DNA from: Malacoraja senta
Taxonomy: Eukaryota
DNA: 64,000 nt
NCBI GenBank assembly: GCA_038087875.1
Contig: CM075992.1
Coordinates: 7,504,001 to 7,568,000, forward strand
Reading direction: 5' to 3'
Under the pieces are notes generated by a model. That model saw nothing but the letters and a program-made list of their open reading frames with translations. It ran no database searches and was not told the origin of the DNA. Positions 6,751-48,993 of the stretch are shown here, piece by piece. Position numbers and translations under genes: made by a program. Position 1 is the stretch's first letter, and every line of letters begins with the position of its first letter.

Positions 6751-7371
6751 CTTCGGTCGATTTTTTACAATTCGGCAGTTTTGTGATTACTGGGTTTGGT
6801 TTTATGTTCAACACCATTTTGATCTAGCAACAAGGAACTGCAGATGCTGGTTTACACAAAAGGGTACAAAGTGCTGGAGTAACTCAGCGGGTCAGGCAGC
6901 ATCTCTGGAGAACATGGATAGGTGATGTTTCAGATCGAGACCAACCCAAGAGTTTGGAGAAGGGGGGTTGATCTGAAAGATCATCTATCCATGTTCCCCA
7001 GAGATGCTGCCTGACCTGCTGAGTTACTCCAGCACTTACTGTCCTTCCATGTTAATCTAATTGCTTGAATTAAGAATCCCTTCCCACTGGCCTAGAGTTT
7101 TGCTCCAATAATCTAACCACAACTGTACCTCCTGGAGCTATGACAAGCAGAGGAGATAACAAGGGATCTTTGTGGACTTCCGAAAGATATTTGATAAGAT
7201 GGTACATGAGAGATTATTGGACAAGATAAGACTCAGGTGGTCAGGGTAATGGATGAGATGTGGAAGCAGAACTGGGTGTAAGATAATCAACGTAATTATC
7301 ACCTACAAAAGGACAGTAGAAGTAATATAATGAAAGACTTGCTTACAGCAGCAGTACAGGCACTGAGACTC

Positions 7372-9391: not shown

Positions 9392-9843
9392 CTGAAGAAG
9401 GGTCCCGACCTGAAACATCACCCACCTTTTTATCTCCAGAGATTCTGCCTGACCCGGTTAGTTACTCCAGCACTTTGTGCCTTTCTTTGGTATAAACCAA
9501 CATCTGCAGTTCTACGTTTCTCCAGTGAAAAGCTTTTTTGTTGCGCACTATCCAGTCAGCATAAAGACTATACATGATTACAATCAAGCCGTCCGCAGTG
9601 TACAGATACAGGATAAAGGGAATAATGTTTAGTGCAAGATAAAGTCCAGTAAAGTCCGATTAAAAGATAGTCCGAGGGTCTTCAGTGAGATAGATGGGAG
9701 GTCAGGACCGCTCTCTAGTTGGACTATGGTGTTTAGTTTAATTTAGTTTAGAGATACAGCGCGGAAACAGGCCTTCGACCCAGCATGTCCGCGCCGACCA
9801 GCGATCAACACACATTAACACTATCCTACACACACTAGGGGAC

Positions 9844-9980
9844 TTCTTCTTGCGTATGGCGTGCACAGCCTAAAGTTGTTGGACAACTTGTTCTATTTGA
9901 TCTCACTTGATTGTGCACGCCAGGTTAATTGCATTCGTCGAAACAGGGTGGACCACGTGAAGGTTGCAATCTCCCACCCC
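9844..9980 (-). mobile_element. ~140-bp SINE-like retroposon with HDV-like ribozyme head, copy 1
   Basis: TSD acactaggggac (9832-9843 / 9981-9992) and (AAG)n tail. The 5' end reads GGGGTGG GA GATTGCA ACC TTCACGT GGT CCACCCT GT TTCGA CGAA TGCAATT. Confidence 0.85.
9927..9980 (-). ncRNA. Predicted minimal HDV/CPEB3-like self-cleaving ribozyme
   Basis: P1 GGGGTGG/CCACCCT with G1-U wobble, P2 GATTGCA/TGCAATT, P3 ACC/GGT, L3 TTCACGT, J4/2 CGAA with catalytic C, and P4 reduced to ~5 nt. Confidence 0.75.
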
Positions 9981-10709
9981 ACACTAGGGGACAATTTACA
10001 CCTTATACCGAGTATACAAACCCAAGCCAAGTTACCTACAAACCTGCACGTCTTGGGAGTGTGGTAGGAATCCGAAGATCTCGGACAAAACCCACGCAGG
10101 TCACGGGGAGAACGTACAAACTCCGTACAGACAGCACCCGTAGTCAGGATCGAACCCGCGTCTTTGGCGCTGCAAGCGCTGTAAGGCAGCAACTCTACCG
10201 CTGCGCCACCGGGCCGCCCAGGTGTGTCGTCAGATATCTGACCTCACCTCAGCACAATCAAATGGGTAGCAAGTAAGTTTTTTGTAACCCAGCTGAATGA
10301 TGTCTATTTGTAATAAATATGTTGGGTATAAAAGCCTCCTGGGAGAATGAGCAGAAGAAACTGTTTAAATGTCTGTTCCCATATCTGTCCTCACTGTGAC
10401 CAGGAGATTAATGTTTAACTCCAGGAAACTCCGAGGCAAACGTAAAAGTTGCCAATCGAAACCAAGGCGGGAGCTAAATGGCCTCATATATCTCACGCCC
10501 CAATGTCATAGCACCCTCCTTAATGTCTGGCCCATGACTTGGACCCACCACAGCGAGGTGGCTCATGTTCATAACTTATAGGAGCAGAATTAGGCCATTT
10601 GGCCCACCAAGTCTACTCCATCATGGCTACCCTATCTCTCCCTCTCAACCCCATTCTCCTGCCTTCTTCCCATAACCCCTGACATCCTTACTAATCAAGA
10701 AGCCATTTA

Positions 10710-11533: not shown

Positions 11534-11718
11534 TAAGAAGGAACTGCAGATGCTGGAAAATCGAAGGTAGACAAAAGTGCTGGAGAATCTCAGCGGGTGC
11601 AGCAGCATCTATGGAGCGAAGGAAATAGGCAACGTTTCGGGCCGAAACGTTGCCTATTTCCTTCGCTCCATAGATGCTGCTGCACCCGCTGAGTTTCTCC
11701 AGCACTTTTGTCTACCTT
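11534..11718. mobile_element. Near-perfect palindromic Penelope mini-element
   Basis: Inverted arms of ~77 bp centred near 11641 (gcaacgtttcgg-g-ccgaaacgttgc), flanked by ttaggtttagtatt direct repeats. Confidence 0.85.
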
Positions 11719-12614: not shown

Positions 12615-13975
12615 TGAATGAATGAATGAATGAATGAATGAATACTTTATTGTCATTATAACATGTAAACATGTACAACAAAATTAGAAATGCCAACCAG
12701 TTAGTGCACCATTCACACATTTTCTAAAAGGAACTAAAATAAATAACATGAAAAACACATTCTTCTGTCGATTTCCCAGTCCCTTTGGTGTGTAGCACAC
12801 CTGCACTCATTTGGTGGCTACATTAAGTGTAGTTATTGCTGGGGGGTAAAAACTGTTTTTGAGTCTGTTTGTCCTTGTCCTCATTGATCTGTACCGTCTG
12901 CCTGACGGCAGCAGTACAAACAGGGAGTGACCGGGGGTGGAAAATGTCCTTTATGATCTTCTGGGATTTTTTGAGACAGTGGGAACTGTGTAGGTCCTCC
13001 AAGGTGAGGAGAGGGCAGCCGATAATCTTCTGGGCGTTGTCAATAGCCCTCTGGAGCGCTTTCCTCTTAGCCGCTGTGCAGCTGGTGTACCACACGCATA
13101 CACAGTATGTTAAGATGCTCTCTATTGAGCACCGATAAAAGGATAGCAGCAGTCTCTGGGCGATGTTGTTCTTCCTGAGCACCCTCAGGAAGTACAGTCT
13201 CTGCTGGACCTTTTTCAGCAGCGCAGAGGTGTTCACGCTCCATGTCAGGTCCTCCTCAATGTGGATTCCCAGGAAGCGGAAATCCGCCACCCTCTCCACA
13301 CAGTCCCCATCGATGATTAGTGGTGTGATGTCCGTTTTCTTCTTTCTGTAATCTATTATGAGCTCCTTGGTTTTTGAGGTGTTGAGGAGCAGGTTATTTT
13401 CTCCACACCACCCTGTCAGCTGCTCCACCTCATCCCTGTAGGCGTACTCATCCCCCCCAGAGATGAGCCCCACCACCGTGGTGTCATCCGCGAATTTGAC
13501 AATGGTGTTACTGTGGTGGGCGGGGGTGCAGTCATATGTGTAGATGGTGTAAAGCAGGGGGCTCAGCGCGCAGCCCTGTGGAGAGCCGGTACCGAGGCTG
13601 AGGGCCGTAGATGTGTTATGGCCCACTCTGACTCTCTGACTGCGACCCGACAGGAAGCTCTTTATCCACATGCAGGTGGAGTGTGGAAGTCCCAGGTCCC
13701 CCAGTTTGTGGGGAAGGATGGTGTTAAAAGCAGAGCTGTAGTCCACAAAAAGCATCCGCACGTAGCTCCCCCGCTGCTCCAGATGTGACAGTGCAGCATG
13801 GAGGGCTGTGGCTACAGCATCCTCTGTGGATCTATTCGCTCTATAAGCAAACTGGTGGGGGGTCAAAGCTTCGGGACAGGAGTGATGTGATGTGACCCCG
13901 GACCAGTTTTTCAAAGCACTTCATCACCACTGGTGTGAGTGCGACTGGCCGGTAGTCGTTGAAACTGGAAATGTG
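12615..13975 (-). mobile_element. Rex1/Babar-type LINE, 5'-truncated, with 363-aa RT ORF (12823-13914)
   Basis: RT motifs QFAYR, VDYSSAFNTI, GSPQGCALSPLLY, KFADD, FLG and the C-terminal YR.SIESILTY..VWY typical of Rex1. It has an (ATTC)n tail and is nested in another Rex1-type 3' end that continues at ~13990-14400. Confidence 0.88.
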
Positions 13976-15160
13976 GGTTTTTTTGGGCAAGGGGACTATG
14001 GTGGAGTGGTATAGTGAAAGAGTTTGTTTTGTATGCTATCCAAACAGATCAGAAGTACCATACATTGATACAATTAGTTCAACCTCCAGAATAATAGATA
14101 GAGCAAAGAGGAAGATACAGAGTGCAGAATATAGTTCTCAGCATTGTAGTACATCAGTTCCACAGACAAAGTCCAATGTCCGCAATGGGGTAGAGGTGAA
14201 TCGGACAGCACCCTAGCTTATGGAAGGACATTCAGAAGCCTGATAACAGAGGGTAAGAAGCTGTTCCTGAGTCTGGTGGTGCGCGCTTTCAAGCTTTTGC
14301 ATCTTCTGCTGGACAGGAGCAGGGAGAAGAAGGAACGACCGGGGTGGGACAAGTCTTTGATTGTGTTAGCTGCTTTTCCAAGGCAGAATAACATGTAGAT
14401 AGACACAAAAGCTGGAGTAACTCACTGCTGTATGCAGACAGCTAGATTCACCCATCCCTTCTCTCCAGAGATGCTGCCTGTCCCGCTGAGTTACTCCAGA
14501 TTTTTGTGTCTATCTTCGGTTTAAACCAGCATCTGCAGTTCCTTCCTGCATAGAATTTAGTTTCGATGTACGTACAGTGTTGAAACAGGCCCTTCAGCCT
14601 ACATCGACCATTAATCACCCGTTCACACTAGTTCTATGTTATCCCACTTCCACATCTTACACACTAGGGGCAATTTACAGAACCCAATTAACCTACAAAC
14701 CTGCACGCCTTTGTAATGTGGGTGGAAAGCGGAGCACCCGGAAGAAACCCACGTGGCCACAGGGAGAACGTGCAAACTCTGCCCAGACAGATTCACCGCC
14801 CGCTGGCTAAAGAAATTTTTCCTCGCTTAATTAGCAACCAAGTACCTTTCATCACCAACACATATCCCAAACATACTGCAGCCAGTTAAACACTGGGATC
14901 CACATGGCTTGCTACTAATTTAACATGCCCTTGTAAAAATGGTTTGGGGAATTAATTATGCTGGATGAATGAATGCACTCTTTTGGTCCGTGTGTGTGTG
15001 AGAGAGACACAGTTTGTATGGGGAGTTGTTAATTGGAGTTATCTGTGTGAGTGACTGAAATGGGTGGCTGAGAGTATTTAACTGTGTTTAAAAATTCCCT
15101 TGGAAGTTCTGTTGGCAATAGTGTACGGGAGTTAGCAACTAATGTGTGCAAAGCCAGATC

Positions 15161-15314
15161 GGGGTGGGAGATTGCAACCTTCACGTGGTCCACCCTGTTT
15201 CAACAAATGCAATCAACCCGGCATGCACAATCAAATAAGATCAAATAGAACAAGTTGTCTGACAACTTTAGGCTGTGCTCGCCATTTGTACGCTGTGTAC
15301 GCAAGAAGAAGAAG
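15161..15314 (+). mobile_element. SINE-like retroposon with HDV-like ribozyme head, copy 2
   Basis: TSD aaagcc(a/t)gatc (15150-15160 / 15315-15325), same G1 start as copy 1, (AAG)n tail, J4/2 CAAA. Confidence 0.85.
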
Positions 15315-17871
15315 AAAGCCTGATCACACAGGCAGCAATGGGAAACCTTCGATTTTCCAGCATCTGCAGTTCCTTCTTAAACAGCAATGGGAATATGATG
15401 GTAGACAAAATGCTGGAGAAACTCAGCGGGTGCGGCAGCATCTATGGATGCGAAGGAAATAGGCAACGTTTCGGGCCAAAACCCTTCTTCAGACCTTGGA
15501 GAAAGTCTGCTTATTTGCTTATATGAATATAATCTGAATATAATATGAATATGGCTACTTGGTTGCTAATTCATGTGAATATGATTATATGAATATAATA
15601 TGACTACTTGGTTGCTAATTCATGGGAATATGATTATAGTCAGGATTATAGTCTGTAGTCAGGATCGAACTCAGGACTCTGGCGCTGTGAGGCAGCAGCT
15701 CTACTGATTCTGCACTAATCACATCACAAACACACAGTGCCACTCACATGCAGGTAGAAATCCATTTGCAATCAGGAGCGTATTAATGCCAGAAGCATTC
15801 TTTGCAATGACAGACTGTGGTTTAATTTCATGAAACTCTGTTTAATCACATCCAGCTCCTGTGATGTAATGAAAACTGGATCATTACATGTGGAAGGGGA
15901 CTTGGTGTCAGAGCCTTAGAGGGCACAGCTCAGCTCACTGCTAGTAAAAATCCACTTTATTGTGTCAACTTGACATTTCAATAGAATCTGAACGTGTATG
16001 AATTTCATTCAGGTGGGATTATTGTGCATTCATAATGCTGCCTGCTCAGAGACCGCCTTGGGGATATTGAGAAACTCCAGCACCCCGAGGACACACAGTC
16101 AACAGCAGAAATGTTTTTCTACCCAAGTTCTTAAACTTATTTTCTTCCAGCATGTATTTAATATACACAGTATCCTTTCATAGAGTCATAGAATCTTACA
16201 GCGTTGAAAAAGGTTCTTCGGCCCAACTTGCCCATACTGGCCTACACTAGTCCCACCTGCCTGCATTTGACCCAAATCCCTCCAAACCTGTCCTATCCAT
16301 GTACCTGTCTAATGTTTCTTAAACGTTGCAATATATCCTGCCTAAACTACCTCCTCCAGCAGCTCGTTCCATACACCTACCACCTTTTGCGTGAAAAAGT
16401 TACCCCTCTGATTCTCTGGGCAAGAGAATCTGTGCGTCTACCCGATCTATTCCTCTCATGATTTTGTACACTATGATTTCATAACAAAAATGATTCTCAA
16501 CAAGCACTTTGACAGTTTAGTCAGTCAAGACTTTCAAAAACTAGGCCAACAACCCTGTGGTGAAGGAGTGTTGCGTGGTAGAGTTGGCATAGAGATAGCA
16601 TGGATAAATTGGGCCAAAGAGCCTGAATTCCATGCTGTATGGCTGTATAGCTGTTTACTGGAGGGATTAAAGCAGACTCAGCTACATCCAGGGGGTAATG
16701 CATCACCAAGGTTTGCTATAACTATAATCATATTCCCATTGCTGCCTGTGTGATCAGGTTTTGCACACATTAGTTGCTAACTCCCTTTCGCTGTTACCAA
16801 CAGAACTTCCAAGGGAATTTTTAAATACTCTCAGCCACCTATTTCAGTCACTCACACAGACAACTCCCCATACAAACTGTGTCTCTCTCACACACACACT
16901 CACCAAAAGAGTGCATTCATCCAGCATAATTAATTCCCCAACCCATTTTTACAAGGGCATATTAAATTAGTAGCAAGCGTGTGCTCTGGAAAGGGATCCC
17001 AGATTATTCCGAGGCAATAATCTGATGTAGACAAAAATGCTGGAGAAACTCAGCGGGTGAGGCAACATCTATGGAACGAAGGAAATAGGCAACATTTCGG
17101 GTCAAAAACCTTCTTCAGACTGGGTCGAAACCCTTCTTCAATCTGATGATCTGTTTTCAGATGTTAGCTGAGTCATAACATCAACTACAATTCCAAGTTT
17201 TCTCCATTACATTTCAAATAGTTCCATGGGACAATTTTATGTACGTGAAGGAGAGGATGGAGATTTAATTTAACACTTGATCTGATAGCTCACCTCATAT
17301 GGAACAATACAGCAATCCCATGGGACTATATATAGTGTCATCCGGGATTCAGTGCTGTAATCCCTGGAGTGGGACTCGAATCCGTGACCTTTTCACTCAG
17401 TCAGGAGTGTTAGACATTGAACACTGACAAAAACAAATAAAAAAGTTTAAAAAAAACTGCAGATGCTGGCTAGCTTAAAATAAAAACAGAAACTGCTGGT
17501 AGGACACTGGACCCCAGACAGCATATGTGGAAAGTAGGCAGATTTTTCATTTTAGGTCAAAGACCCTTCATCTGAAAATGGGAAAAGAAGTTGCAGAGTG
17601 GGTGAGAAGGATAGGATAGGTATTCGGTATAGGTGAGGACTCTGTGGTGGATGTGCTCAAGAGGCGTATGAGGAGCAAGGTGCAGGTCATCCTCGACAAC
17701 TCCGGGCACCCCCTCCATGAAATTCTGGAGGGTCAAAAGAGCACACGGAACAACAACCGGTTCCTCTCCCTGCGCTGTAGAACAGAGCGGTTCAGGAGAT
17801 CCTTCACCCCTGCAGCCATTAGATTTTATAATACTGTAGGCTGTATGGGGATGCTTTGCATTTTTTTTTAA

Positions 17872-17921: not shown

Positions 17922-20650
17922 CGTGCACTAAAAAAGGGATATGTAAAAGCTGTGGAATGCGGAGAAATGAAACCAAAAAGAAAATGCTGCTTTCCAAACT
18001 CCAATTCCAAAAGACATCTTTGCAACAACCGAAGAAGCCACTTCCAATTAAAAGAAAACAAAAGTTACTGTATTCCAGGAGAATGCACGCACTTGTTAAA
18101 TATGGGATCAGAGAAAGATCCACCTTTGTTATGTTCAAGAAGGAACTGCAGATGCTGGAGAATCGAAGGAAGACAAAATTGCTGGAGAAACTCAACGTTG
18201 CCTATTTCCTTCGCTCCATAGTTGCTGCTGTACCCGCTGAGTTTCTCCAGCAATTTTGTCTTCCACCTTTGTTATTATTCACCTAACCATGTGTAAATCA
18301 TCAAAAATCTCACTCCCCCTTAAACGCTGCTGTGTGGGCAGACTTCAAGGCATTAGTGAATAAAGATTCTTTATGTTAAAATATTTCAATGAAAAATCAG
18401 AACTAATCTAAACTAACTGAAAATGGTAAGTATGTACAGGTACTAAACCTGTGTGTGATAATAATGCTGGTTGTTACTAAAGTTGTGTTTGCACCCAGAC
18501 ATGACTTGGGTTCTTCTGTTGGCCTCATGAAAAACGATTAAAGGGAGACAGGAACCTACAGATGCTGGTTTACAAAAAAAGACACAAAGTACTCAGCGGG
18601 TCAGGCATCTCTGTAGAACATGGATAGGTGATGTTTTGGGTCAGCGACAGGGTGGGAGGGGGAAAAAGTTGGAAGAGAGATGATATTGTAAATCCATACA
18701 CATCCCCCCTCTCTCCGTCCCTCCCCCAGCCTAGTCGTTGCACTAGTTTCACTGTCCTGTTGAGATTCATTGTCTGGATAACTCGTTATCACCTACCCCA
18801 CAGCCAACAATGGACCATTGTGGGCTCCACCTTTGCTTTTTGCATATCTTTCATTCATTTGGTCGACGTCCTGTTTCCCTCTCCCCTGACTCTCAGTCTG
18901 AAGAAGGGTCTCGACCCGAAACTTCACCAATTCCTTCTACCCAGAGATGCTGCCTGTCCCACTGAGTTACTCCAGCAGTTTGTGTCTACAAAATTCTATG
19001 TTTTAAACATTCACTGGATGGCTCAGTTGCATTAAACCTTTACGAAATAATTTAAAACCTAATGAAAGATATGGTAATAAAAAATATCGAACATTTCCTT
19101 CAAGCCCAGAAATATAAGATTCAGTGGTTAATACCATAAACGAGGCATGACTTTATGCTGTGAAAGACATTTAAGCCTATTGATTTAATCTGCTGATCTC
19201 CTGGTGACCTAGCATAACTAGATATTCAAGTGAAATGGCCAGAGTTTTTGTGATGTGTAAAATGAGATTTAATGTAGAAACAAAGAACTGCAGATGCTGG
19301 TTTATATTAAAAATAGACACAAGTGCTGGAGTAACTCAGCGGGTCAGGCAACTTATGGAGAAAAAGGATGGGTGGCGTTTCGGGTAGGGAACCTTCTTTA
19401 GACACGAGATTGAATGAGATTTAAACCTGGGTTAGATCAGGAGAGTGGAAATAGGGAGGTGTTTCCCAGCAGGAGTGCAGATACTGAAAGATGGACCAAC
19501 TAAATGACAGCATTCAGCCCCATTGTAAATCCCACTCGGTACTCTTGGTTAAAAGGTGAACCAGAATTTTCGTTCCTGGACCACAAATCAAGCTTCGCTC
19601 AATAAGATGCAAAGGATGAGAAAGAATATCTTGCCGAATAACCCTTACCTATTTCCCACTTTCACTTAACCTTCTATACACACAATGCGTTTGGAAAACA
19701 CAAGGCATTTATTCAGCAAGCTTCCTGCAAATTTACATCCATGCATAAAAAAATGCTTGGGAATCAGTTTTTGTACTTCAAAAATTATTTATTCAGAGAA
19801 AAGTATAATTTCAATTCCTCTCCAAATCTTAGCTAAACAAAGTTGAAGGGAATAGTATAGACAATAACATGGCAGTGATTTGAATGAAAAACATTGAGTT
19901 GGATGGAGAGATGTGAGAATGGAACATAAATGCGGGCACATTTCAGCTGGCCCAAATGCCTGTTTGTCTCGTTAATTCTCTGTAATTTCCTGAATGGTGC
20001 AGATATTATTTCTGGGATTATGTATCGCCCCAGATTGGTAAAGTTTTGTTGAAGCCCAGTATAAGTCTGTGACATGAATCAACATAAAAAGGGGTGGAGT
20101 ACTCATCAGCTATGAACAGGTCAAATCTCCATGTATTCAATGCTGATACTAATGTGAGGGCATGCGTATGGCTTTCCGTTTTTAATACCACTTCAGCGCT
20201 ACTGGATATGAAAAGGAATATGCAGCTCCCAGAACAGTAGAATACAAACCAGATGGATCTTGCTCCATTGTTGTCCAGCGATTCCTGGGATCACTCTATT
20301 GGAAGAGCTTCTTGCCACCATATGTTTTTCACCAATTTTGCCTCAAAGTAGTGTTCTAAATGTTGTTGTGATGAACGTTGCTTCTTTTCACCCATCCGCA
20401 CAGATATTTCCTAAGATTTGGATTTTCATGGCAATGCCACGTGTCTAAGCTATTTATATTGGTTTATTTCTTCCCTCTATGAACAAACGTGATCTCAAGC
20501 TCTTCATTGTCAATGCAGACACTTCATTTTGATACATTCCCCTTATTGGTTGCTGGTCATTCTTAGTCACAAATTGCCTTCCTTGGGTAGATTCTTCATT
20601 AAAGCAGCTCCCGAGGTGTGGAATCTGTGGCAGCGATGATCCCAAGCCCA

Positions 20651-23905: not shown

Positions 23906-25884
23906 TTTCTACTTTCTACAAGGTACTTGTGGAAGTTTGTTTGAGTATTTGGTGACATGCTGAAACTCTCTGCACTTATAAGAAAGAAGTGTGCAGATGC
24001 ACTTTCTTTGTGCTTACATCTATGTGCGGGGGCCAGTACAGGTCATCCCCAAGATGTTATGCCCAGAAGTTTTAAGCTGATAACTCTATCCACGAAAACA
24101 AGCAAATGGTCTCCTGACCATCCCTTTTAAATTAAAGATGAGTTGCTTTGTTTTGTTGACATTGGGAGGTTGTTGTTGTGGCACTATACAAGCAGCTGTT
24201 CCATCTCTTTCCTGTATGTTGATTCATCACCTGTGATTTGGCCAACAACAATGGTGTTGGTGGTGAATTTTTAGTTGGCACTGGATTTTCCTCTGCTACT
24301 GTGATGGCTGTAAGGTGAGTGGAGCAAAGGGAAAAATACGTAGCCTTGAGGTGCACACCCTAATTCCACTTTGGCAAACTGGAACACCATCGCAACTTCT
24401 TGTACTACCATCGGCTTGCCCTCATTATGATTTTGCACCAACGTTTTTTTTGCAGTCATCTAGAATTTTACATAACATAGAAAATAGGTGCAGGAGTAGG
24501 CCATTTGGCCCTTTGTGCCAGCACCGCCATTCAATATGATCATGGCTGAATCAGTACCCCATTCCTGCTTTCTCCCCATATCCCTTGATTCTGTAACATT
24601 GATGTTACGTTTATGTTACATAACAGTTATGGATATTGTTTTGGAAGGACATGGGCAGGTTTGGAGGGATATGGGACAAACGTTGGCAAGTGGGACTAGT
24701 GTAGCTGCAACATGTTGACCAAGTGTGGGCAAGTTGACATGTGTGGGCAAGTTAGGCCGAAGGGCCTGTTTCCACACTGTACCACTGTATGATTTATGTG
24801 TAATGTATTTGTGTGTGTTTATCTGAGTCAATGTATCTGTGATACTTGCTGCAAGCAACATTTTCATTGCATCTTGTCTTTACCATACTCATGCCCATGA
24901 CAAATTGAACACGTCATTGAAGCAGGGACGTTGTTACTGATCTGCCATGATTGAGGTCTGCTGATGAAAAAGTCAGGGATCCGTTTGCAAAGGGAGTCTT
25001 GGAGCTGGGAGATGTTTGAAGACCATCTTCTTTTCGTGTCCATCTTGTGACAAATGTTGACCCCGCTGTCATCGTCCGTCATGAAAAGGACGCAAGCTTC
25101 CGGCGACACTCAGTGTGAGCCATCACTTGTGGCAATAGATGATGGTGGTAGCAGAATTAGCTCGGGATACTTCCAGTTTCCAGCCCCGCGACGTGGACGC
25201 TTCTGCTATGGGGCCTTTGAAGACCATGAATGTGTTTTACATTGAGCTGTACATTGTTTTACAGTGAGATGCTTCGGAGCAGAGTGGAGAGCCAGTGAGA
25301 TAGCATGTGCTGTTGACCTGTTGTGGCGATAGGTAAAATGCTAACTCTGTTTCTTTTCCCACAGATGTGCCCCGACCTATGGGCTCTTTCCAGTATTTTC
25401 TGTTACTTTGAGTCTCATTGATGTCAGTTCTTTATAAATGGACAACTGCACCAATGCTAGCTATAATCAATTATTTTGAGTTAAAACTAACGAGACATTA
25501 AATTCTTACATCTAGCGCAACAGTGCAAGGACAGACAGTGACTTGGCGAGATGAATGCGTAATAAACAAGCTGTACCAAATTAGGTGAAGAAAAACAATG
25601 TACGAAAAATCTCTAGGGAAATGGAGTAACAGCATCTTCAGGAAAATTTAAAAACAGGTTTAAAAACAAGTCAGCAGGGCAAGATAAGAACTCCTAGGGC
25701 AAGACGACAAACATTTAATTCCACAGCACAAATAGAAAGAGGTAAACTAGGATTAGGAAGCCTCATGAATTAAATTGCTGAGGAACAAGGCATTCATACA
25801 AACTAGTGTTTAATCTTCTCGCACCTTATTTCAGCTTGCTCCATCTAACAAAATGGCCTCCTCATCTCTTCTACATTGTACAAT

Positions 25885-27105
25885 TAGATAGATGGATAGA
25901 TAGATAGAATCTTTATTTGCCACACGACCAGGGTTGGTGGTATTTGGGTTCGGTACGTGATGGTACACTGCTTTAGTCACATTAACACTAATAACACAGA
26001 TCATAGTAATAAAGTGCATCCATACCACATCACAAATGACAAATCTCACCAACAATACATAGTGCAAAAGAACAGACAAGACCATAGACAAGACACTGTA
26101 TACACCAAAAGTCCTTAGTATTGTCTGTTATTGGAAGGAATTGAGTGTTCTTATTGCTGAGGGGAAGAAACTGTTTTTAAAGCGGGTGGATTTTGTAGCA
26201 ATTGACCTAAGGCGCCTCCCTGAAGGGAGAGACTGGAAAAGGTGGTTTGCTGGATGGGAGGGGTCCGAGATGATCTTTATTGTCCGTTTTGAGGTACGTT
26301 GGAGGTAAATGGTATGGATTGAGGGGAGGGAAGAGTTGATGATCCTAGAGGCCTTGGAGACAATGCGCTGTATTCTGTGTAGTGAGTGACTGTCAGTGTT
26401 TCCGTACCAGACTGTGATTGAGGAGGTGATGATGCTTTCAATGATGGATTGATAGAAGCGGACCAGGAGGTGTTTGTGGACTCTGACCTTTTTGAGCTGT
26501 CTGAGGAAGTATAGGCGTTGTTGTCCTTTCTTGATGATGTGGTCTGCATTGATGTGCCATTTTAGATTATTGCAGATATAGGTGCCCAGAATCTTAATGA
26601 GTTCGTAGAGGTTATGGGATGGGAGTTGACATGGACCGGGGGTTTGGGGTTTTGTTTGCGTCTGAAATCTATGATGATTTCTAAGGTTTTTGAAGTATTA
26701 AGCTGGAGGTTGTTGTCTGCGCACCATTTGACTGCGCTGTCCACTGTTTGATGGTATTGTGATTCGTTGTTGTCTGAGATGAGGCCAATTATTGTTGTGT
26801 CGTCTGCATATTTGAAAACAATTTTGACTGAGCTGCATTGGGATGTGAGGTTGTTGGTGTAAAGTGAGAAGAGCTGAGGTGACAGAACGCACCCTTGAGG
26901 GGCTCCTGTGTTGAGAGTCAGAGGGCTGGAGAGTTTTTCACCCACCTTGACTCTTTGCTGTCTGTTTGTCAGAAAGTGCAGAATCCAATGGCACATGGCT
27001 AGGTGAATGCTCATGTCCAACAGTTTATTGTAGAGTTTAATTGGGTGTATAGTGTTAAAGACCGAGCTAAAATCTATAAACAGGATGCGTGCATAAGTGT
27101 CTAGC
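25885..27105 (-). mobile_element. Rex1/Babar-type LINE RT fragment, frameshifted
   Basis: WILHFLTNRQQRV, GAPQGCVLSPQLFSLYT, KYADDTTIIGLIS, LN.SKT.EIIIDFRR; (TATC)n tail. Confidence 0.85.
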
Positions 27106-27689
27106 TTTTATTATCTAGCTTTTCCTTAAATGCATCCACCAACCACTCAATGTGGCGATGTTTAGTTTAGTTTAGAGATACAGTGTGGAGCCAGGCCCTT
27201 CGGCCCACCGAGTCCATACTGACAAGCGATCCCCATACACTAGGACTATCCTACACAGTCGGGACAATTTACAATTTTACCAAAGCCAATTAGCCTGCAA
27301 ACTTGTAGGTCTTTGGAGTGTGGGAGGAAACCGGAGCATCCGGAGAAAACCCACTTGGTCATGGGGAGAACGTACAACGAGGAGTTTGGGGTACAGTATT
27401 CCAAAGATTCATAACTCTCAGAGAAATAATTTCTCTGAAACAGGTGGCACCTTTCTTTGGAACTATGTCTCTTAGGTCTAGATACTGCACCTTGAGGGGA
27501 ATATTCCCTCTGCATCATCCAAATCATTGATATAGATGACAAACAGCATTGGGCCCAGCATCAATCCCTGAGGCACACTACTAATCACAGGCCTCCAGTC
27601 TGAAAATCCTTCCACCACCACCCTCCTACCATTAAGCCTCATTAGCTATAGGAAGTGCTTTCAGTGACTGGTTCTCCAGAAAATGTGGT

Positions 27690-39919: not shown

Positions 39920-40465
39920 TAGCTTGCAACCCAGCGGTATGAATGTTGAGCTTGCAACCCAGCGGTATGAATGCTGATTTCTCCAATTTCAAGTAATCCC
40001 TGCATTCCCTGTCTATCCGCCCCTTCCCCACCCTAGTCATCCTGCCAGATTCACTATTTGCATGGGGTGGAAGATTGCAACCTTCACGTGGTCCGCCCTG
40101 TTTGACAAATGCAATCAACCTGGCGTGCACAATCAAATAAGATCAAATAGAACAAGTTGTCCTACAACTTTAGGCTACGCACGCCATACGCAAAAAGAAG
40201 ACGACGACTATTTGCATCCATATATACCTTAATTCTCACTTCTTCCACAGCCAACAATGGGCCATTGTGGGCTCCACCTTTTCTTGTTCAATGGTGCAGG
40301 CTCTGAATTGTTCTGAACTTTTTCATACTCTAATTTCCCCTGCCCTGACTCGGTCTGAAGAAGGGACCGAAACATCATCTATTCATTTCTCTAGAGATGC
40401 TGCCTGACCTGCTGATTTACTGCAGTATTTTGTGTCTATCTTCGATGTAAACCAGCATCTGACGT
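39920..40465 (+). mobile_element. Penelope 3' fragment (LQPSGMNADFSNFK*, UTR, hammerhead-like terminal repeat)
   Basis: GIY-YIG C-terminal peptide with a local tandem duplication, and a terminal repeat at ~40354-40465. It hosts copy 3 of the ribozyme SINE. Confidence 0.7.
40064..40206 (+). mobile_element. SINE-like retroposon with HDV-like ribozyme head, copy 3
   Basis: Perfect TSD actatttgcat (40053-40063 / 40207-40217). The 5' end reads GGGGTGG AA GATTGCA ACC TTCACGT GGT CCGCCCT GT TTGA CAAA TGCAATC. Confidence 0.85.
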
Positions 40466-41797: not shown

Positions 41798-42127
41798 GGA
41801 CGACAGATGCGCAATGGGCTAAGTGTTCGGCTGGCAACCGGAAGGTAGCCGGTTCGAATCCCGCTTGGAGTGCATACTGTCGTTGTGTCCTTGGGCAAGA
41901 CACTTCACCCACCTTTGCCTGTGTGTGAATGATTGGTGGTGGTCGGAGGGCCCGTAGGCGCAGATTAGCAGCCACGCTTCCGTCAGTCTGCCCCAGGGCA
42001 GCTGTGGCTACAGAAGTAGCTCACCACCACCGAGTGTGACTGAGGAGTGAATGAATAATGCGATGTAAAGCGCCTTGAGTATTAGAAAGGCGCTATATAA
42101 ATCCCATCTATTATTATTATTATTATA
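41798..42127 (+). mobile_element. tRNA-derived SINE resembling teleost AFC/CORE-type SINE with L2-type tail
   Basis: B-box ggttcgaatcc, gtcgttgtgtccttgggcaagacacttcaccc, gccccagggcagctgtggctac, tail gtaaagcgccttgag...aaaggcgctatataaat and (tat)n. Confidence 0.8.
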
Positions 42128-44087
42128 TTGGTGTACTCAGTTTAAATATTGGATGTCCTCATGTTTGAGTATCACACTGGATGGCAAGATTGAAAAGTTT
42201 CCCATCAGTTTGCTATGCAGTGGGTATCACTGGCAGGAAGTAATGAAGATAGACACAAAATGCTGGAACAGGCAGCATCTCTGGAGAGAAAGAATGGGTG
42301 ATGTTTTGGGTCAAGACCCTTCTTCAGACAATAAAGAGCAGATTTCCAAGAAGAAATCCAGATCTGGTTTGCAAGTTCTAGCTGCAGGATGTGGTTGTTA
42401 AGCACAACTCTGCTGTTCTGCTCATTGTGGATGTGTGTCTGACACATGCCACCTCGTATGTTCTCCATTCCCAACTCGATCAATGCCAAATGGGCCACTA
42501 TAGACTTTGTTCTTCTTCAGGTAATCTGTTGCTGGCCCGGATTTGTACTGGCCTTTTCTTGCCTCCAGCCATCCCACCCCCACCTCCATTTTTCAGTCTG
42601 AAGGAGGGTTCCAACCTGTTACGTCACCTATTCCTTTTCTCCATGGAGCTCATTGAAAAGCTTAGATTGATAGACTTCTGAATATTAAGGGAATCAAGGA
42701 ATGTGATATAAAGTAATAAAAACGATCGGCAGATGCAGGGCTGCCAAGACTGGCCCCTGCTTGCCTTCAAAGACCGGGAACCAGAGAGGAGGTTGTTGGA
42801 ATAGTGCCGAATGCTGAACAAGGTCCAGTAAGAAGGAACCCGGGATCTTACCTTTGAAGACAGGCATAATCACTGAAGTTCCTGCCAATATTTGTACTTA
42901 CACTTGTTTTATCACTGCTTTTTTAAATCCTCACTCTGTATACATAGCCCTTCAAAGCAAAGGTACTTTTTGACTGTAAAATACTTCTGGTTGTCCCAAA
43001 GTAGTAAAGGGACCATGTAAAAGGTCAGCTGCGGGAGTCTCCCTGGGGCACGATGGTTGATGATGGCCACGCAAGGAGAGGGTGATGGTTCACGGGATGA
43101 CTAGATGGAGACGACAGCTGCAGCAGCCTTTAATGCCAGCTGCAGTTGGGACTGAAATGGTGCCAAAACCTGGCGACTCTTGCACATGGACTCAGTGGGC
43201 TGTTACTATGTATTATGTACTTATTGTACTCATGGCAATAATTTCTACTGATCTGTAATGCAAAAAAAAAAGTATTCCGCTGAACCTTGGTGCACGTAAT
43301 AACAAAGGAACCATTGAGCCATTATACCAAAGATAGACTCAGAAGAAGGGCCCTGACCTGAAATGTTACCTATCCATTTTCTCCAGAGATGTTGCCTGAC
43401 CCACTGAGTTACTGCACCATTTTGTGTCTATTTTTGGTCAATGCTAAAGCTGTCAAAAGAAATGTTACAAGGACGCCCTCAAAGCATCCGTGGGGGAATT
43501 TTGAGAATGGCATTGAAAGTCAGGAAGTTTGGTGAGATGCATGGAATAAAGATAGCATTGGCCTGCCATGACAGTTATGTAAGTTGGTAGAATGATTGGA
43601 TCATTGGCAGATGAAATTTAATGCTGAGAAATGTGAAGTGTTACATTTTGGTAGGAGGAATGAGAAGGAGCAACAGGGGCACAAGAACAGAATTGTGGAT
43701 GGTTTATTGAAGCTGGCAGGGTAGCTGGCAAAAGTCATTTTACCAGAAAATTACTTCTAAATCAAAGCTCAGATGCAATGTGTTGTTTAAAACTGTTAAG
43801 TTATTCACTTTGGCACACAAAATAGGAGTTTGTTAAAAGAAAGAGATTGGCTATTGTTGATGTTCTTGATGCAGTTGCAGAGGGCCTTAAACAGTACAAT
43901 ACAATAAGAAAGCACCTGAGTATTGTGTACAGTGCCTGTGAAAGGACATCCTTGCCAGTGAGTGCAGTAATGATTCACTACAATGATTCCAGAGATGGTA
44001 GGTTTGACATGGAAGGGATTAAATGGTCCTGGACTGCTTCTGTTAAGTTTAGAAGAATAAGAGTTCTCATTGAAACTCAAACTCTTA

Positions 44088-44412
44088 AGGGCCTGTCCCA
44101 CTGGACGAGGTAATTCAAGAGCTCTCCGAGTTTAAAAAAAAAACAAACTCGTGGTAAGCACGTAGAATGTACGTAGCAGGTACGTCGGAGCTTGGGACTT
44201 CTCTTAGCGGCTCGTAACGCTAACGGCAGGTACTCGGATAAGCTCGTGAAATCGGATAAGCTTGTGAAATCTCGTGAAGATTTTCAACATGTTGAAAAAT
44301 GTCCACGAGAGCCCCGAGTACCTACGAGCGGCTATTACCGTAATTCTCCGAGTTCGAATCAGGGGACACTCGGGAGCACTCTTGAATTGGCTCGTACAGT
44401 GGGACAGGCCCT
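44088..44412. mobile_element. PIF/Harbinger-type MITE (325 bp)
   Basis: TIRs of ~34 bp starting AGGGCCTGTCCCACTG, TTA TSD (44085-44087 / 44413-44415), and empty site actcTTAcac in copy B (~47766). Confidence 0.9.
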
Positions 44413-45245
44413 TTACACGACTCAACAGGCTGGTACAGCTGTGGAAATTTCCTTGGCTGAGAACCAGAAAAGAAAACCATATCAGAAAAGGGCACAACAT
44501 GCTGGAGTAACTCAGCGGGTCAGGCAGCATCTCTCGAGAACATGGATAGGTGACATTTCAGATAAATTTGAGGGGGGGGGGGGAGCTCCTACATTGATCT
44601 CTGGTTCTTAGCTGTGGTTTCACAGACCACTTCAACAACCCATGAAACAGGAGTCATCCTTGATCCAGAGAAACTGCTGCAGGAGGATATCTGTGTTATG
44701 TTGCAGTATAAACATCCTCCCAGTTTACCAATGGACGATTTGTGTACAGCTCGTGTGTACGATCAAGTGTTGGGGAGGCTTGATGGGGTGGTTTGCCGGT
44801 TGCAACAGGATTGCAGGCATCATCTTTTGCGCAGGGAAACTTCCCAGCTGCATTTCCGACTTGCGAACTGTTCAGCTTGCAGAACTCTGCTGCAATTTGG
44901 TAGGACCTGTGTGCTTTTACATGGAACAGTGTTGATATTTTAAGCCAACTCCAATAAGCACTTTTACCAGTTCTGGCTTCAAATTTCAGAATAATTATTT
45001 GCTGCTGAAAGTTCCAGGTCTACGCGACTTTGCTTGGTTAGGGGTTAATCAGTATTTCGTATGCAACAAAATTCTGTGTTTAACCAATTAACATTTAACA
45101 AATTAGCAAACCCTTGCAATCTCCATTCATTTGGTAAGTGCCTTGAGGTTTGTTGTAAAAATCTAGAAAGTTTTTCTTTATGGTTGATGACTGAGTGGGG
45201 AATATAATGAAGCTTTATTGGAGAAGCATGGATTGATAAAAAATA

Positions 45246-45708
45246 GATCTATTGATGCTCCTGAACACATCATCAGTGATGTAACCTGGGGGTCATTGGG
45301 TGTTTCGGGTCTTTCAACATCAGACACCCTCACCCAGGCGACCCAGCCATGGTTGATCAGACCACGACGTGTTCAGGTGGCATTCGCTCCTCCCCATGGA
45401 CCTCCTCTCCTGATCCACAGCCATCTCGAGGCTTCCTCCGCTGCCTCTGTGATGTTCTTGATGGCTCTTCTCCTCTCCATTCCGTTAATGCCCAGTGCAC
45501 TCAAGGCTTTGTAGAGCGATTGCCCTGCAAAACCTCTGCAGCCAACCTCGATGGGCATACACCTTGCCTTCCAGCCCTGCTTACGGCAGTCTATGACCAG
45601 CTCTTCATACTTGGTCATCTTCCTCTCGTGGGCCTCCTCCAGACGGTCCTCCTACGGCACTGTCAGTTCCAACAAGACAATGTTTTTGGTCGCCTCTGAG
45701 ACCAGGAG
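45246..45708 (-). mobile_element. HERO-like (restriction-like endonuclease) non-LTR retrotransposon 3' end
   Basis: Translation IVLLELTVP*EDRLEEAHERKMTKYEELVIDCRKQGWKARCMPIEVGCRGFAGQSL...SRWLW; absent from duplicate copy B. Confidence 0.8.
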
Positions 45709-46147
45709 TTTGGATTGAGGCATGTTAAGCTAGACATGATAGAGTCTGAAGAAGGTCTCGACCCGAAACATCACCCATTCCTTCTCTCCAGAGACGCTGC
45801 CTGTCCCGCCGAGGTACTCCAGCATTTTGTGACTATCTTTGGCTATAAAACCAGCATCTGCAGTTCCTTCCTACACACAGTCTTCACATTGGGAGCATTG
45901 TCCATTGTGCTGTCAATGGAGTTGACCAGTGACTCGTTGCGAATGGAGAAGATTAGAACAGGAAACATCCAGACGTGCCCTAATGAGGTGCCGGTCTAGT
46001 AAAGCTGCACCAGGGAATGAAATCATGCTAAATAGCAACAGCAGCGTGCAATAGAGCCAAGAAATCCTGCAACTGAAAGATCAGATTTTGCAATTTTGCC
46101 CTATTCAGTCATTGATAGTGGTGAGCAATTATACAATTAAGCTTAAG

Positions 46148-46390
46148 GGGGGCACACCAATGGCATAGTGGTGGAACTACTGCCTTACAGAGCCAGAGAA
46201 CTGGGTTCAATCCTGACTACGGATGCTAGCCATACAGAGTCTGCATGTTCTCCCAGTGTTCGTGTGGGTTTTCTCCAGGTGCTCCGGTTTCTTCTCGCAT
46301 TCCAAAGATGTACATGTTTGTAGTTAAATTAGTTTCTGTAAATTGCTCATAGTGTGTAGGATAGAACTATTATACGGGGATTATTGGGTA
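46148..46390 (+). mobile_element. V-SINE at the junction between the duplicated units
   Basis: tRNA head and V core, tail truncated. Confidence 0.75.
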
Positions 46391-46404
46391 ATAAAAATGA
46401 TCTG

Positions 46405-48993
46405 CAGATGCAGGGCCGCCGAGACTGGCCCCTGCTTGCCTTCAAAGACCGGAAACCAGAGAGGAGGTAGTTGGTAATGGTGCCGAACGCTGAACAAGGT
46501 CCAGTAAGAAGGAACCCTGGATCTAACCTTTGAAGACGGGCATAATCGCTGAAGTTCCTGCCAATATTTGTACCTACACTTGTTTTATCACTGCTTTAAA
46601 AAAAAAATCCTCGCTCTGTATACATTGGCCTCCAAAGCAAAGGTACTTTTTATTACTGTAAAATACTTCCGGTGTCCAAGGTGGTGAAAGGCACCATGTT
46701 AAAGGTCAGCTGCTGGAGTCTCTCTGGGGCATGATGGTTGATGATGGCCAGGCAAGGAGAGGGGTGATGGTTCACGGGATGACTAGATGGAGATGACAGC
46801 TGCAGCGGCCTTTAATGCCAGCTGCAGTTGGGACTGAAATGGTGCCAAAACCTGGCGACTCTTGCACATTGGACTCAGTGGGCTGTTACTATGTATTATG
46901 TACTTATTGTACTCATGGCAATTATTTATACTGATCTGTATGCAAAAAAAAAGTATTCCACTGTACCTTGGTGCACGTAATAACAAAGGAACCATTGAGC
47001 CATTATACCAAAGGTAGACTCAGAAGAAGAGCCCTGACCTGAGATGTCACCTATCCATTTTCTCCAGAGATGCTGCCTGAGTTACTGCACCATTTTGTGT
47101 CTATTTTTGGTCAATGCTAAAGCTGTCAAAGAAATGTTACAAGGACTCCCTCAAAGCATCTGTGGGGGGAATTTTGAGAATGGCATTGAAAGTCGGGAAG
47201 TTTGGTGAGATGCATGGGATAAAGATAGCATTGGCCTGCCATGACAGTTATGTAACCTGGTAGAATGATTGGATCATTGGCAGATGAAATTTAATGCTGA
47301 GAAATGTGAAGTGTTACATTTTGGTAGGAGGAATGAGAAGGAGCAACATAAACAAGGGCACAAGAACAGAATTGTGGATGATTTGTTGAAGCTGGCAGGG
47401 TAGGTGGCAAAAAGCATTTTAACAGAAAATGAGTTCTTTAAATCAAAGCTCAGATGCAATGTGTTGTTTAAAACTGTTAAGTTATTCACTTTGGCACACA
47501 AAATAGGAGTTTTGTTAAAAGAAAAGAGATTGGTTATTGTTGATGTTCTTGATGCAGTTACAGAGGGCCTTAAACAGTACAACACAATAAGAAAGCGCCT
47601 GAGTATTGTGTGCAGTGCCTGCGAAAGGACATCCTTGCCAGTGAGTGCAGTAATGATTCACTACAATGATTCCAGAGATGGTAGGTTTGACATGGAAAGG
47701 ATTAAATGGTCCTGGACTGCCTTCTGTTAAGTTTAGAAGAATAAGAGTTCTCATTGAACATTAAACTCTTACACAACTAAACAGGCTGGATACAGCTGAG
47801 GAAATGTCCTTGGCTGAGAACCAGAAAAGAAAACCATATCAGAAAAGGGCACAAAGTGCTGGAGTAACTCAGCGGGTCAGGCACCATCTCTCGAGAACAT
47901 GGATGGGTGACGTTTCAGATAAATTTGGGGGGTGAGGTGGTGTTGGGGGGTGGGGGGGGGCTCTTGCATTGATCTCTAGTTCTTGCTCTGGTTTCACACG
48001 CCTCTTCAACCCATGAAACCCTCTTCAACCCAACTGGAGTCATCCTTGATCCAGAGAAACTGCTGCAGGAGGAGATCTGCGTTATGTTGCAGTATAAACA
48101 TCCTCCCAGTTTACGAATGGCCGATTTATGTACAGCTCGTGTGTACGATCGAGTGTTGGGGAGGCTTGACGGGGTGGTTTGCCGGTTGCAACAGGATTGC
48201 AGGCATCATCTTTTGCGCAGGGAAATTTCCCAGCTGCATTTCCGGCTTACGAACTGAACTGTTCAACTTGCAGAACTCTGCTACAATTTGGTAGGACCTG
48301 TGTGCTTTTACACAGAACAGGGTTGATATTTTAAGCCAACTCCAATAAGCACTTTTACCAGTTCTCGATCAAATTGCAGAATAATTATTTGCTGCTGCAA
48401 GTTCCAGGTCTACATGAAAGAAAATCCTGTGTTTAATCAATTAGCATTTAACAAATTAGCAAATCCTTGCAATCTCCATTCATTTGGTAAAGTGCCTTAA
48501 GGTTTGTTGTAAAAATCTAGAAAGTTGTTCTTTATGGTTGATTACTGAGACTGAGTGTGGAATATAATGAAGCTTTATTGGAGAAGCTTGGATAAGATCT
48601 ATTTTGTCCATTGACTATAATTATTGATAATTGTTTGGATTGGGGCATTAAACTAGACATGATAGAGTCTGAAGAAGGGTCTCGACCAGAAACATCACCC
48701 ATTCCTTCTCCCCAGAGACGCTGCCTGTCCTGCCGAGTTACTCCAGCATCTTTGGTATAAACCAACATCTGCAGTTCCTTCCTACACATCGTCTTCACAT
48801 TGGGAGCATTGTCCATTGTGCGGGTCCACTGCAGTTGCTGTCAATGGAGTTGACCAGTGACTCGTTGCGAATGGAGAAGATTAGAACAGGAAAGGTCCAG
48901 ACGTGCCATAATGAGGTGCCGGACTAGTAAAGCTGCACCAGGGAATGAATTCATGCTAAATAGCAACACCAGCATGCAATTGAGCCAAGAAAT
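46405..48993 (+). repeat. Intronic tandem segmental duplication, copy B
   Basis: Collinear with copy A; lacks the MITE and HERO insertions. Confidence 0.92.

Follow-up and report, generated by a model that had tools for sequence, protein, structure and literature searches.

Retroposons in the analyzed window

The window, a stretch of 64,000 nt from contig CM075992.1 of Malacoraja senta, contains three copies of a short retroposon (family A), with a mutual likeness of 91–92%, and one copy of a second short retroposon (family B). An earlier note on this DNA had described the three copies of family A, their target duplications of 11–12 bp and their 54-nt head with an HDV-type fold. Re-reading of the window and BLAST confirmed these observations, and no fourth copy was found within the window by BLAST. 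Family A has no ORF, is flanked by target duplications and ends in a microsatellite tail (AAG). Copy 1 is inserted in a repeat that is older, dispersed and about 300 bp long; further copies of this repeat occur in the window, and it may resemble an HE1-type tRNA SINE.

The window also contains long palindromes, which are head-to-head copies of another abundant repeat and match miRNA models below the gathering score, a local duplication spanning several kb, fragments of reverse transcriptase from non-Vingi LINEs and one predicted tRNA-Ala. All coordinates are given in Table 1.

Table 1. Features of the window and helices of the copy 1 head (helix positions are counted from G1 of the element).
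Feature	Position	Strand	Remarks
Family A copy 1, full length	9844..9980	-	Within another dispersed repeat
Copy 1 HDV-like head, 54 nt	9927..9980	-	Descriptor parse
Copy 1 3′ part, stem enclosing hairpin	9855..9925	-
Copy 1 target duplication, 3′ side	9832..9843		12 bp, exact
Copy 1 target duplication, 5′ side	9981..9992		12 bp, exact; abuts G1
Copy 1 P1	1-7/30-36
Copy 1 J1/2			2 nt
Copy 1 P2	10-16/48-54
Copy 1 P3	17-19/27-29
Copy 1 L3	20-26
Copy 1 P1.1	C22-G37
Copy 1 P4	U39-A43		Closing 3 nt
Copy 1 putative catalytic C	C44
Family A copy 2	15161..15314	+	About 14 nt extra ahead of AAG tail
Copy 2 head	15161-15214	+
Copy 2 target duplications	15150-15160 / 15315-15325		11 bp, one mismatch; abut G1
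Family A copy 3	40064..40206	+	P4 remnant short by one base
Copy 3 head	40064-40116	+
Copy 3 target duplications	40053-40063 / 40207-40217		11 bp, exact; abut G1
Family B, about 190 bp	25027..25215	-	Rfam CPEB3 41.1 bits, cut-off 35
Family B target duplication	25015-25026 / 25216-25227		12 bp
Dispersed repeat around copy 1	~9742-10215
Palindromes	452-560, 11587-11695, 18171-18261, 6908-6998		Head-to-head repeat copies
Local duplication, several kb	42713-46065 and 46388-48993		85-93% identity
Non-Vingi LINE reverse-transcriptase fragments and one tRNA-Ala (ARAGORN)	12823-13920, 26128-27107, 41800-41873	-, -, +

Organization of the family A head

The head parses as the nested double pseudoknot of HDV-like ribozymes in all three copies, as the earlier note had proposed. 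The P1 (7 bp, with a G1-U36 wobble), P2 (7 bp), P3 (3 bp) and L3 (7 nt) are free of mismatches, and the one-pair P1.1 and a C-N-A-A motif ahead of the 3′ strand of P2 are parsed in each copy. The noted likeness of L3 to the loop of the CPEB3 ribozyme proved to be an identity with the Rfam CPEB3 consensus L3, and J1/2 also has the length of that consensus. P4 is indeed vestigial, with a single pair enclosing three bases; the canonical P4 helix is missing, and such a P4-less fold represents the minimal subtype of HDV-like ribozymes. The J4/2 sequence given in the note (CGAA) is found in copy 1 only, as copies 2 and 3 read CAAA.

A strict HDV descriptor of our own design, with features from the HDV/CPEB3 literature, yielded four matches in the window (copies 1–3 and family B at 25215) and none in any of 60 Markov-1 simulated windows. 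A chance fold is ruled out by these simulations together with the covariation with LINE heads described below. The Rfam models, including the HDV-type and CPEB3 models with which the note had proposed to check the head, do not match the family A copies but do match relatives. Minimum-energy folding of the whole elements gave structures no better than shuffles (z-scores of -1.06, +0.30 and -1.32 for copies 1–3); the program used cannot form pseudoknots and is thus uninformative on the head.

A P1.1 of one pair plus U:U has been reported to be compatible with fast cleavage (PMC13635239). A P1 of 6 or 7 bp and a short J1/2 are usual, while spacers of 0–1 nt impaired another ribozyme (PMC4908430). 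The near-loss of P4 and a 2-nt J1/2 could slow or abolish cleavage in family A.

The 3′ half and Pol III signals

The 3′ part of copy 1 forms a stem of 10–11 bp around a 7-bp hairpin; the 10-bp stem has a z-score of -3.98 and was equaled in 0 of 200 shuffles. This stem, perfect in copy 1 as described in the earlier note, is mismatched in copies 2 and 3. The stem-loop is the presumed recognition site of the LINE protein. The same part of copy 1 reads as a Trp codon followed by eight codons and a stop, like the ORF ends of Vingi elements, a register that is suggestive only, with the Trp codon confined to one family A subfamily.

Could family A instead be a common Pol III SINE whose tRNA head has decayed and whose pseudoknot is coincidental? 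Loose, uncontrolled box patterns give A-like sites with one mismatch at positions 26 and 86, plus a B-like one at 79, but these are misplaced for transcription starting at G1, ARAGORN predicts no tRNA at any family A copy in the window, and the descriptor null and cross-family covariation exclude a chance fold; a tRNA-derived (SINE2) head was rejected, and we regard this origin as very improbable.

Family A across the genome

Family A is dispersed, with unrelated flanks, over a genome of 1.94 Gb. With at most one mismatch, a 21-nt pattern from the head matches 8,562 times; exact matches to a 27-nt tail pattern number 3,304. Neither of the reversed controls gave a match. Near-identical family A words are also found in the sequence runs of nine organisms, and in four contig runs loose ends with unrelated flanks start at the same boundary (40063-40065).

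The 5′ ends of these copies are uniform, as the earlier note had described. When loci were picked with the 3′ half only, 30 out of 30 extend to G1, a set in which the query, some duplicates and three previously seen loci are counted. Among copies chosen by the tail alone (the first 59 consecutive tail matches in C1), 58 contain the head. For 32 of the 59, this count relies on an exact match to the head word, located about as far away as expected, the first nine bases lying outside the part viewed. The other 27 were fetched: one is 5′-truncated, while 26 reach the position of G1; among these 26, some have a changed G1 or internal deletions, and a CR1-like insertion splits one. Target duplications ending exactly before G1 were called by a strict rule in 58 out of 78 distinct copies (20 remained uncalled), and 49 of these are 11–13 bp long. 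Family A thus has a fixed 5′ end and the signature of target-primed reverse transcription (TPRT), and is spread by retroposition.

A T precedes G1 in 44 of the 78 copies, and T is enriched at -6, -13 and -14 as well. In several copies this T has no counterpart in the 3′ duplication; it could stem from a non-templated A on the cDNA or from a target preference. We also observed a common subfamily that differs in its tail and has lost 2 nt, and a locus (L009) with two copies of different subfamilies about 200 bp apart.

The pairing of P1–P3 is conserved across copies, again in agreement with the earlier note: each of the 18 head pairs is kept in 71–78 of the 78 distinct copies, although every pair and core base is intact in just 43. 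The G1-U36 wobble is present in 68 copies, C44 in 75, and U39 and A43 of the P4 remnant in 78 and 77, respectively. Variants reach 15% or more at four head sites: 8 (in J1/2), 32 (where A or G faces U5), 42 (in the loop) and 45, the variable base of C-N-A-A (G/A/T/C in 39/27/9/3 copies). Three of these four sites are CpG guanines, the partner cytosines of which change far less often; C44 shows two C-to-T changes against 39 non-G bases at site 45. The retention of C44 next to a variable site 45 suggests that source elements were under selection and required the catalytic base; the count is weakened by the subfamily structure and by a query carrying A45 and represents few independent events. Non-CpG divergence is about 2% in both head and body, indicating that family A is young and that its copies decay neutrally.

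Vingi-type LINEs of the same genome

Using a reverse transcriptase (RT) motif, back-translated in several codon variants, we found 349 matches genome-wide and none with the control. The homologues encode a single ORF; at about 1,000 aa, it contains APE and RT domains but gave no RNase H match. Vingi elements have been described with such a single-ORF APE and RT architecture (PMC13708176), and we accordingly refer to these LINEs as Vingi-type, an assignment made on domain architecture rather than on a named reference or tree. Most full-length homologues end in Trp, eight residues and a stop. Twenty-five LINE 3′ windows were fetched, several of which held no LINE end; most of those with an end have a short UTR and a tail of AAG repeats, while TAAA repeats terminate one family. 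Small contigs (C51, C385, C2310, C5476 and others) hold many near-identical matches to the Vingi APE, which suggests amplification within a larger duplicated unit.

In 32 LINE 5′ windows, a head was recognized by eye in 18 and not in the remaining 14; a relaxed descriptor passed eight. The heads form five families (V1–V5), each situated directly before the APE ORF. Compared with family A, 43 out of 85 P1–P3 pairs are the same, 35 differ by two-sided changes, four by one-sided changes and three are broken. In a structure-blind MAFFT alignment of nine heads, which were picked for fitting the fold and are mutually related, P1, P3 and P1.1 are paired in 99 out of 99 cells against 44–54% when slid, with two-sided changes in eight out of 11 pairs. 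The family A fold is therefore supported by covariation among related sequences. The head of V5 is 85% identical to that of family A over 26 nt. The gap between P1.1 and C44 differs, with 5 nt in family A versus 18–40 nt in the Vingi-type heads. The Rfam model of the F. prausnitzii HDV-like ribozyme matched V4 heads below the gathering score (E-values of 0.002 and 0.008), and 3 out of 18 loci were matched. In V3 heads (L132, L135, L139 and L143), P1.1 is a U-A instead of a C-G pair, a compensatory change in a one-pair pseudoknot.

Similar heads were found in metagenomes. From 80 metagenome loci with Vingi-type ORFs, 1,602 windows were scanned with the descriptor; the three that passed all immediately precede the ORF on its sense strand. 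Upstream sequence was long enough at 20 of these loci; only two of them pass, and decayed versions are seen in many others. Two metagenome Vingi heads are 79–80% identical to family A over 39–45 nt. At the gathering score, Rfam detected nothing in 19 metagenome Vingi loci. Taken as sequence comparisons, these data show that the heads of family A and of Vingi-type LINEs are kin.

Search for a parent LINE

The earlier note had proposed to look for an autonomous LINE sharing both ends with family A. None was found in the exclusion searches or among the fetched LINE ends. Three exclusion searches (47, 36 and 56 matches), each with a prior chance of about 56% of passing a parent, revealed neither a recurring alternative flank nor a direct parent, and a version of the family A head with a long P4 did not recur. 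None of the 25 LINE 3′ windows has the family A tail; the 3′ half of family A shares tail type and ORF-end register with the fetched Vingi tails but matches them weakly in sequence. Two apparent candidates were rejected. In L081, with the head 3.4 kb upstream of the tail, a family A copy is split by a CR1-like LINE, and in L082 by another insertion. The CR1-like LINE (L081:120-3372) measures 3.2 kb with a 784-aa open frame and is inserted just behind the family A ribozyme, indicating that CR1 was active after family A. CR1 was rejected as partner LINE.

Family B and the CPEB3 ribozyme

Family B has an HDV-like head with a 6-bp P1, a 2-bp P1.1 and a P4, and ends in an AAG tail resembling the Vingi tails L096 and L153. 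Its 18-nt head pattern has 1,066 matches at one mismatch genome-wide (control, one), and the same G is the first base in each of the 20 loci examined.

Two copies of Vingi family V1 match the CPEB3 model RF00622 with 59.7 and 63.8 bits (cut-off 35; E-values of about 1e-15 to 1e-16), V1 being the best scorer of the five LINE head families. Their heads (L168:12-95 and L169:16-99) match the model over its full length, show compensatory changes in P1 and P4 and run directly into the APE ORF. The CPEB3 ribozyme and family A share L3, the 2-nt J1/2, the helix lengths of 7/7/3 and, in the Rfam consensus, a one-pair P1.1 followed by U. In contrast, the mammalian ribozyme is single-copy and intronic and has a P4, and family A fails RF00622, whereas family B and V1 match it. 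No occurrence of the CPEB3 ribozyme beyond mammals has been detected, and it has been left without an outgroup (Bendixsen et al.). The V1 head is a candidate source or outgroup for it. Convergence would be an alternative explanation for this likeness, given that V1 was picked as the best of five and that the R2 and HDV cores, too, share 21 out of 27 bases (PMC8256844).

Proposed origin and mobilization

We consider it likely that family A is young and descends, as a non-autonomous element, from a Vingi-type LINE, of which it combines the 5′ ribozyme and the extreme 3′ end; it would be freed by its ribozyme and mobilized by Vingi. A host transcript would read through a family A copy, and the first 54 nt would fold as the HDV-like double pseudoknot backed by covariation, with P4 reduced to one pair. 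Cleavage just 5′ of G1 via C44, as expected from the known chemistry of the HDV-like family, would free an RNA of about 140 nt, the folded 5′ end of which may also resist decay. A Vingi ORF protein, acting in trans, would then bind the 3′ stem-loop together with the AAG tail and insert the element by TPRT, consistent with the observed signature. A short RNA with a fixed first base would explain why nearly all new copies are full length from G1, as is observed.

The main competing explanation retains the Vingi origin, but an internal promoter in the head sets the 5′ end and the P4-less fold acts as a protective cap or protein-binding site that cleaves slowly or never. Such a promoter would likewise give uniform 5′ ends, and Pr77, the head of L1Tc/NARTc in the sister clade, is an internal promoter and a ribozyme at once (PMC4035085). 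In addition, the HDV fold itself improves template use by R2, apparently through stability (PMC11331408), and the P4 of family A is nearly gone. The conservation of C44 beside the variable site 45 argues against this explanation, within the few independent events noted above, as does the activity of P4-less ribozymes in phages (PMC10879173). We deem it unlikely, though it deserves serious consideration.

The earlier note had left the choice between an RTE-like and a Vingi/Ingi-like mobilizer. Homologous heads and the AAG tails of the Vingi-type LINEs of this genome favor the latter. RTE families also carry such ribozymes and yield bipartite derivatives (PMC5786205), and LINE searches aimed at Vingi-type elements yielded no Vingi parent whose 3′ end matches closely. 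Yet the head sequence, the 7-2-7-3-7 geometry, the AAG tail and the register of Trp, eight codons and stop match the Vingi-type LINEs of this genome, making an RTE-type or other non-Vingi LINE as parent or mobilizer quite improbable. The interpretation given in the note is thus right in outline and partly supported.

Comparison with known elements and implications

Family A is of a known kind of element, while its P4-less form and its link to Vingi appear to be new. The NARTc, RIME and SIDER derivatives of L1Tc/ingi in trypanosomatids are likewise short, ribozyme-headed LINE derivatives. In comparison, family A has an animal host, a 54-nt head, a one-pair P4, a length of about 140 bp and thousands of copies. 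R2 SIDEs are LINEs with internal deletions that have retained both the HDV-like ribozyme on the 5′ side and the recognition end on the 3′ side (PMC3414825). They insert in rDNA via an RLE-type protein, whereas family A is dispersed, with duplications of 11–13 bp and an AAG tail. The ORF-less Vingi-1_EE derivatives, RTE-N and Bov-A join the 5′ end of a LINE to its 3′ end (PMC5786205); family A differs from these bipartite elements by the absence of a direct parent among the sequences searched.

Like drz-Mtgn-1 and the theta ribozymes, family A lacks P4 with an otherwise intact core. Minimal HDV-like ribozymes have been reported almost only from gut phages, often beside tRNAs, whereas family A heads an animal retroposon without an upstream tRNA. 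The accessible part of PMC10879173 reports minimal P4-less forms from phages and only 12 bacterial matches, in a search including human, mouse and protist genomes. An assignment to theta ribozymes, compatible with the P4-less fold, was rejected as family A is a dispersed genomic repeat with unrelated flanks and without tRNA at its copies.

HDV-like or hammerhead ribozymes occur in some metazoan LINEs and SINEs, as outlined in a review (PMC6765202). Bipartite elements derive from RTE, Ingi, Vingi and R2 according to PMC5786205, which in its accessible part lists six ribozyme-bearing clades, Vingi not being among them. Within the literature covered we found no account of family A, a Vingi ribozyme or a eukaryotic minimal HDV-like form, and the available portion of a 2026 ribozyme survey makes no mention of Vingi, shark or SINE. 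Family A may already bear a name in Repbase or Dfam, and animal Vingi heads may stand in earlier literature or repeat databases as Ingi.

On a broader scale, the whole Vingi clade might have HDV-like ribozymes as its standard 5′ end. Family A might be a P4-less ribozyme that arose by reduction of a head of this type and works in an animal nucleus, and the CPEB3 ribozyme an orphaned, domesticated Vingi head with V1 as its first outgroup. We put this combined scenario forward tentatively, as possible rather than probable. The V1 match gives the CPEB3 ribozyme a testable origin.

If the proposed origin is true, Vingi would join the ribozyme-bearing clades. This matters in practice because Vingi-1, equipped with its native 5′ UTR, serves as a gene writer, while a 2026 review, in its accessible part, names a ribozyme for R2 or HDV-derived modules only. 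Family A would rank with the smallest known retroposition units. It would extend minimal HDV-like ribozymes from phages to an animal genome, where they are present in thousands of copies, the natural variants of which would serve as a mutational scan.
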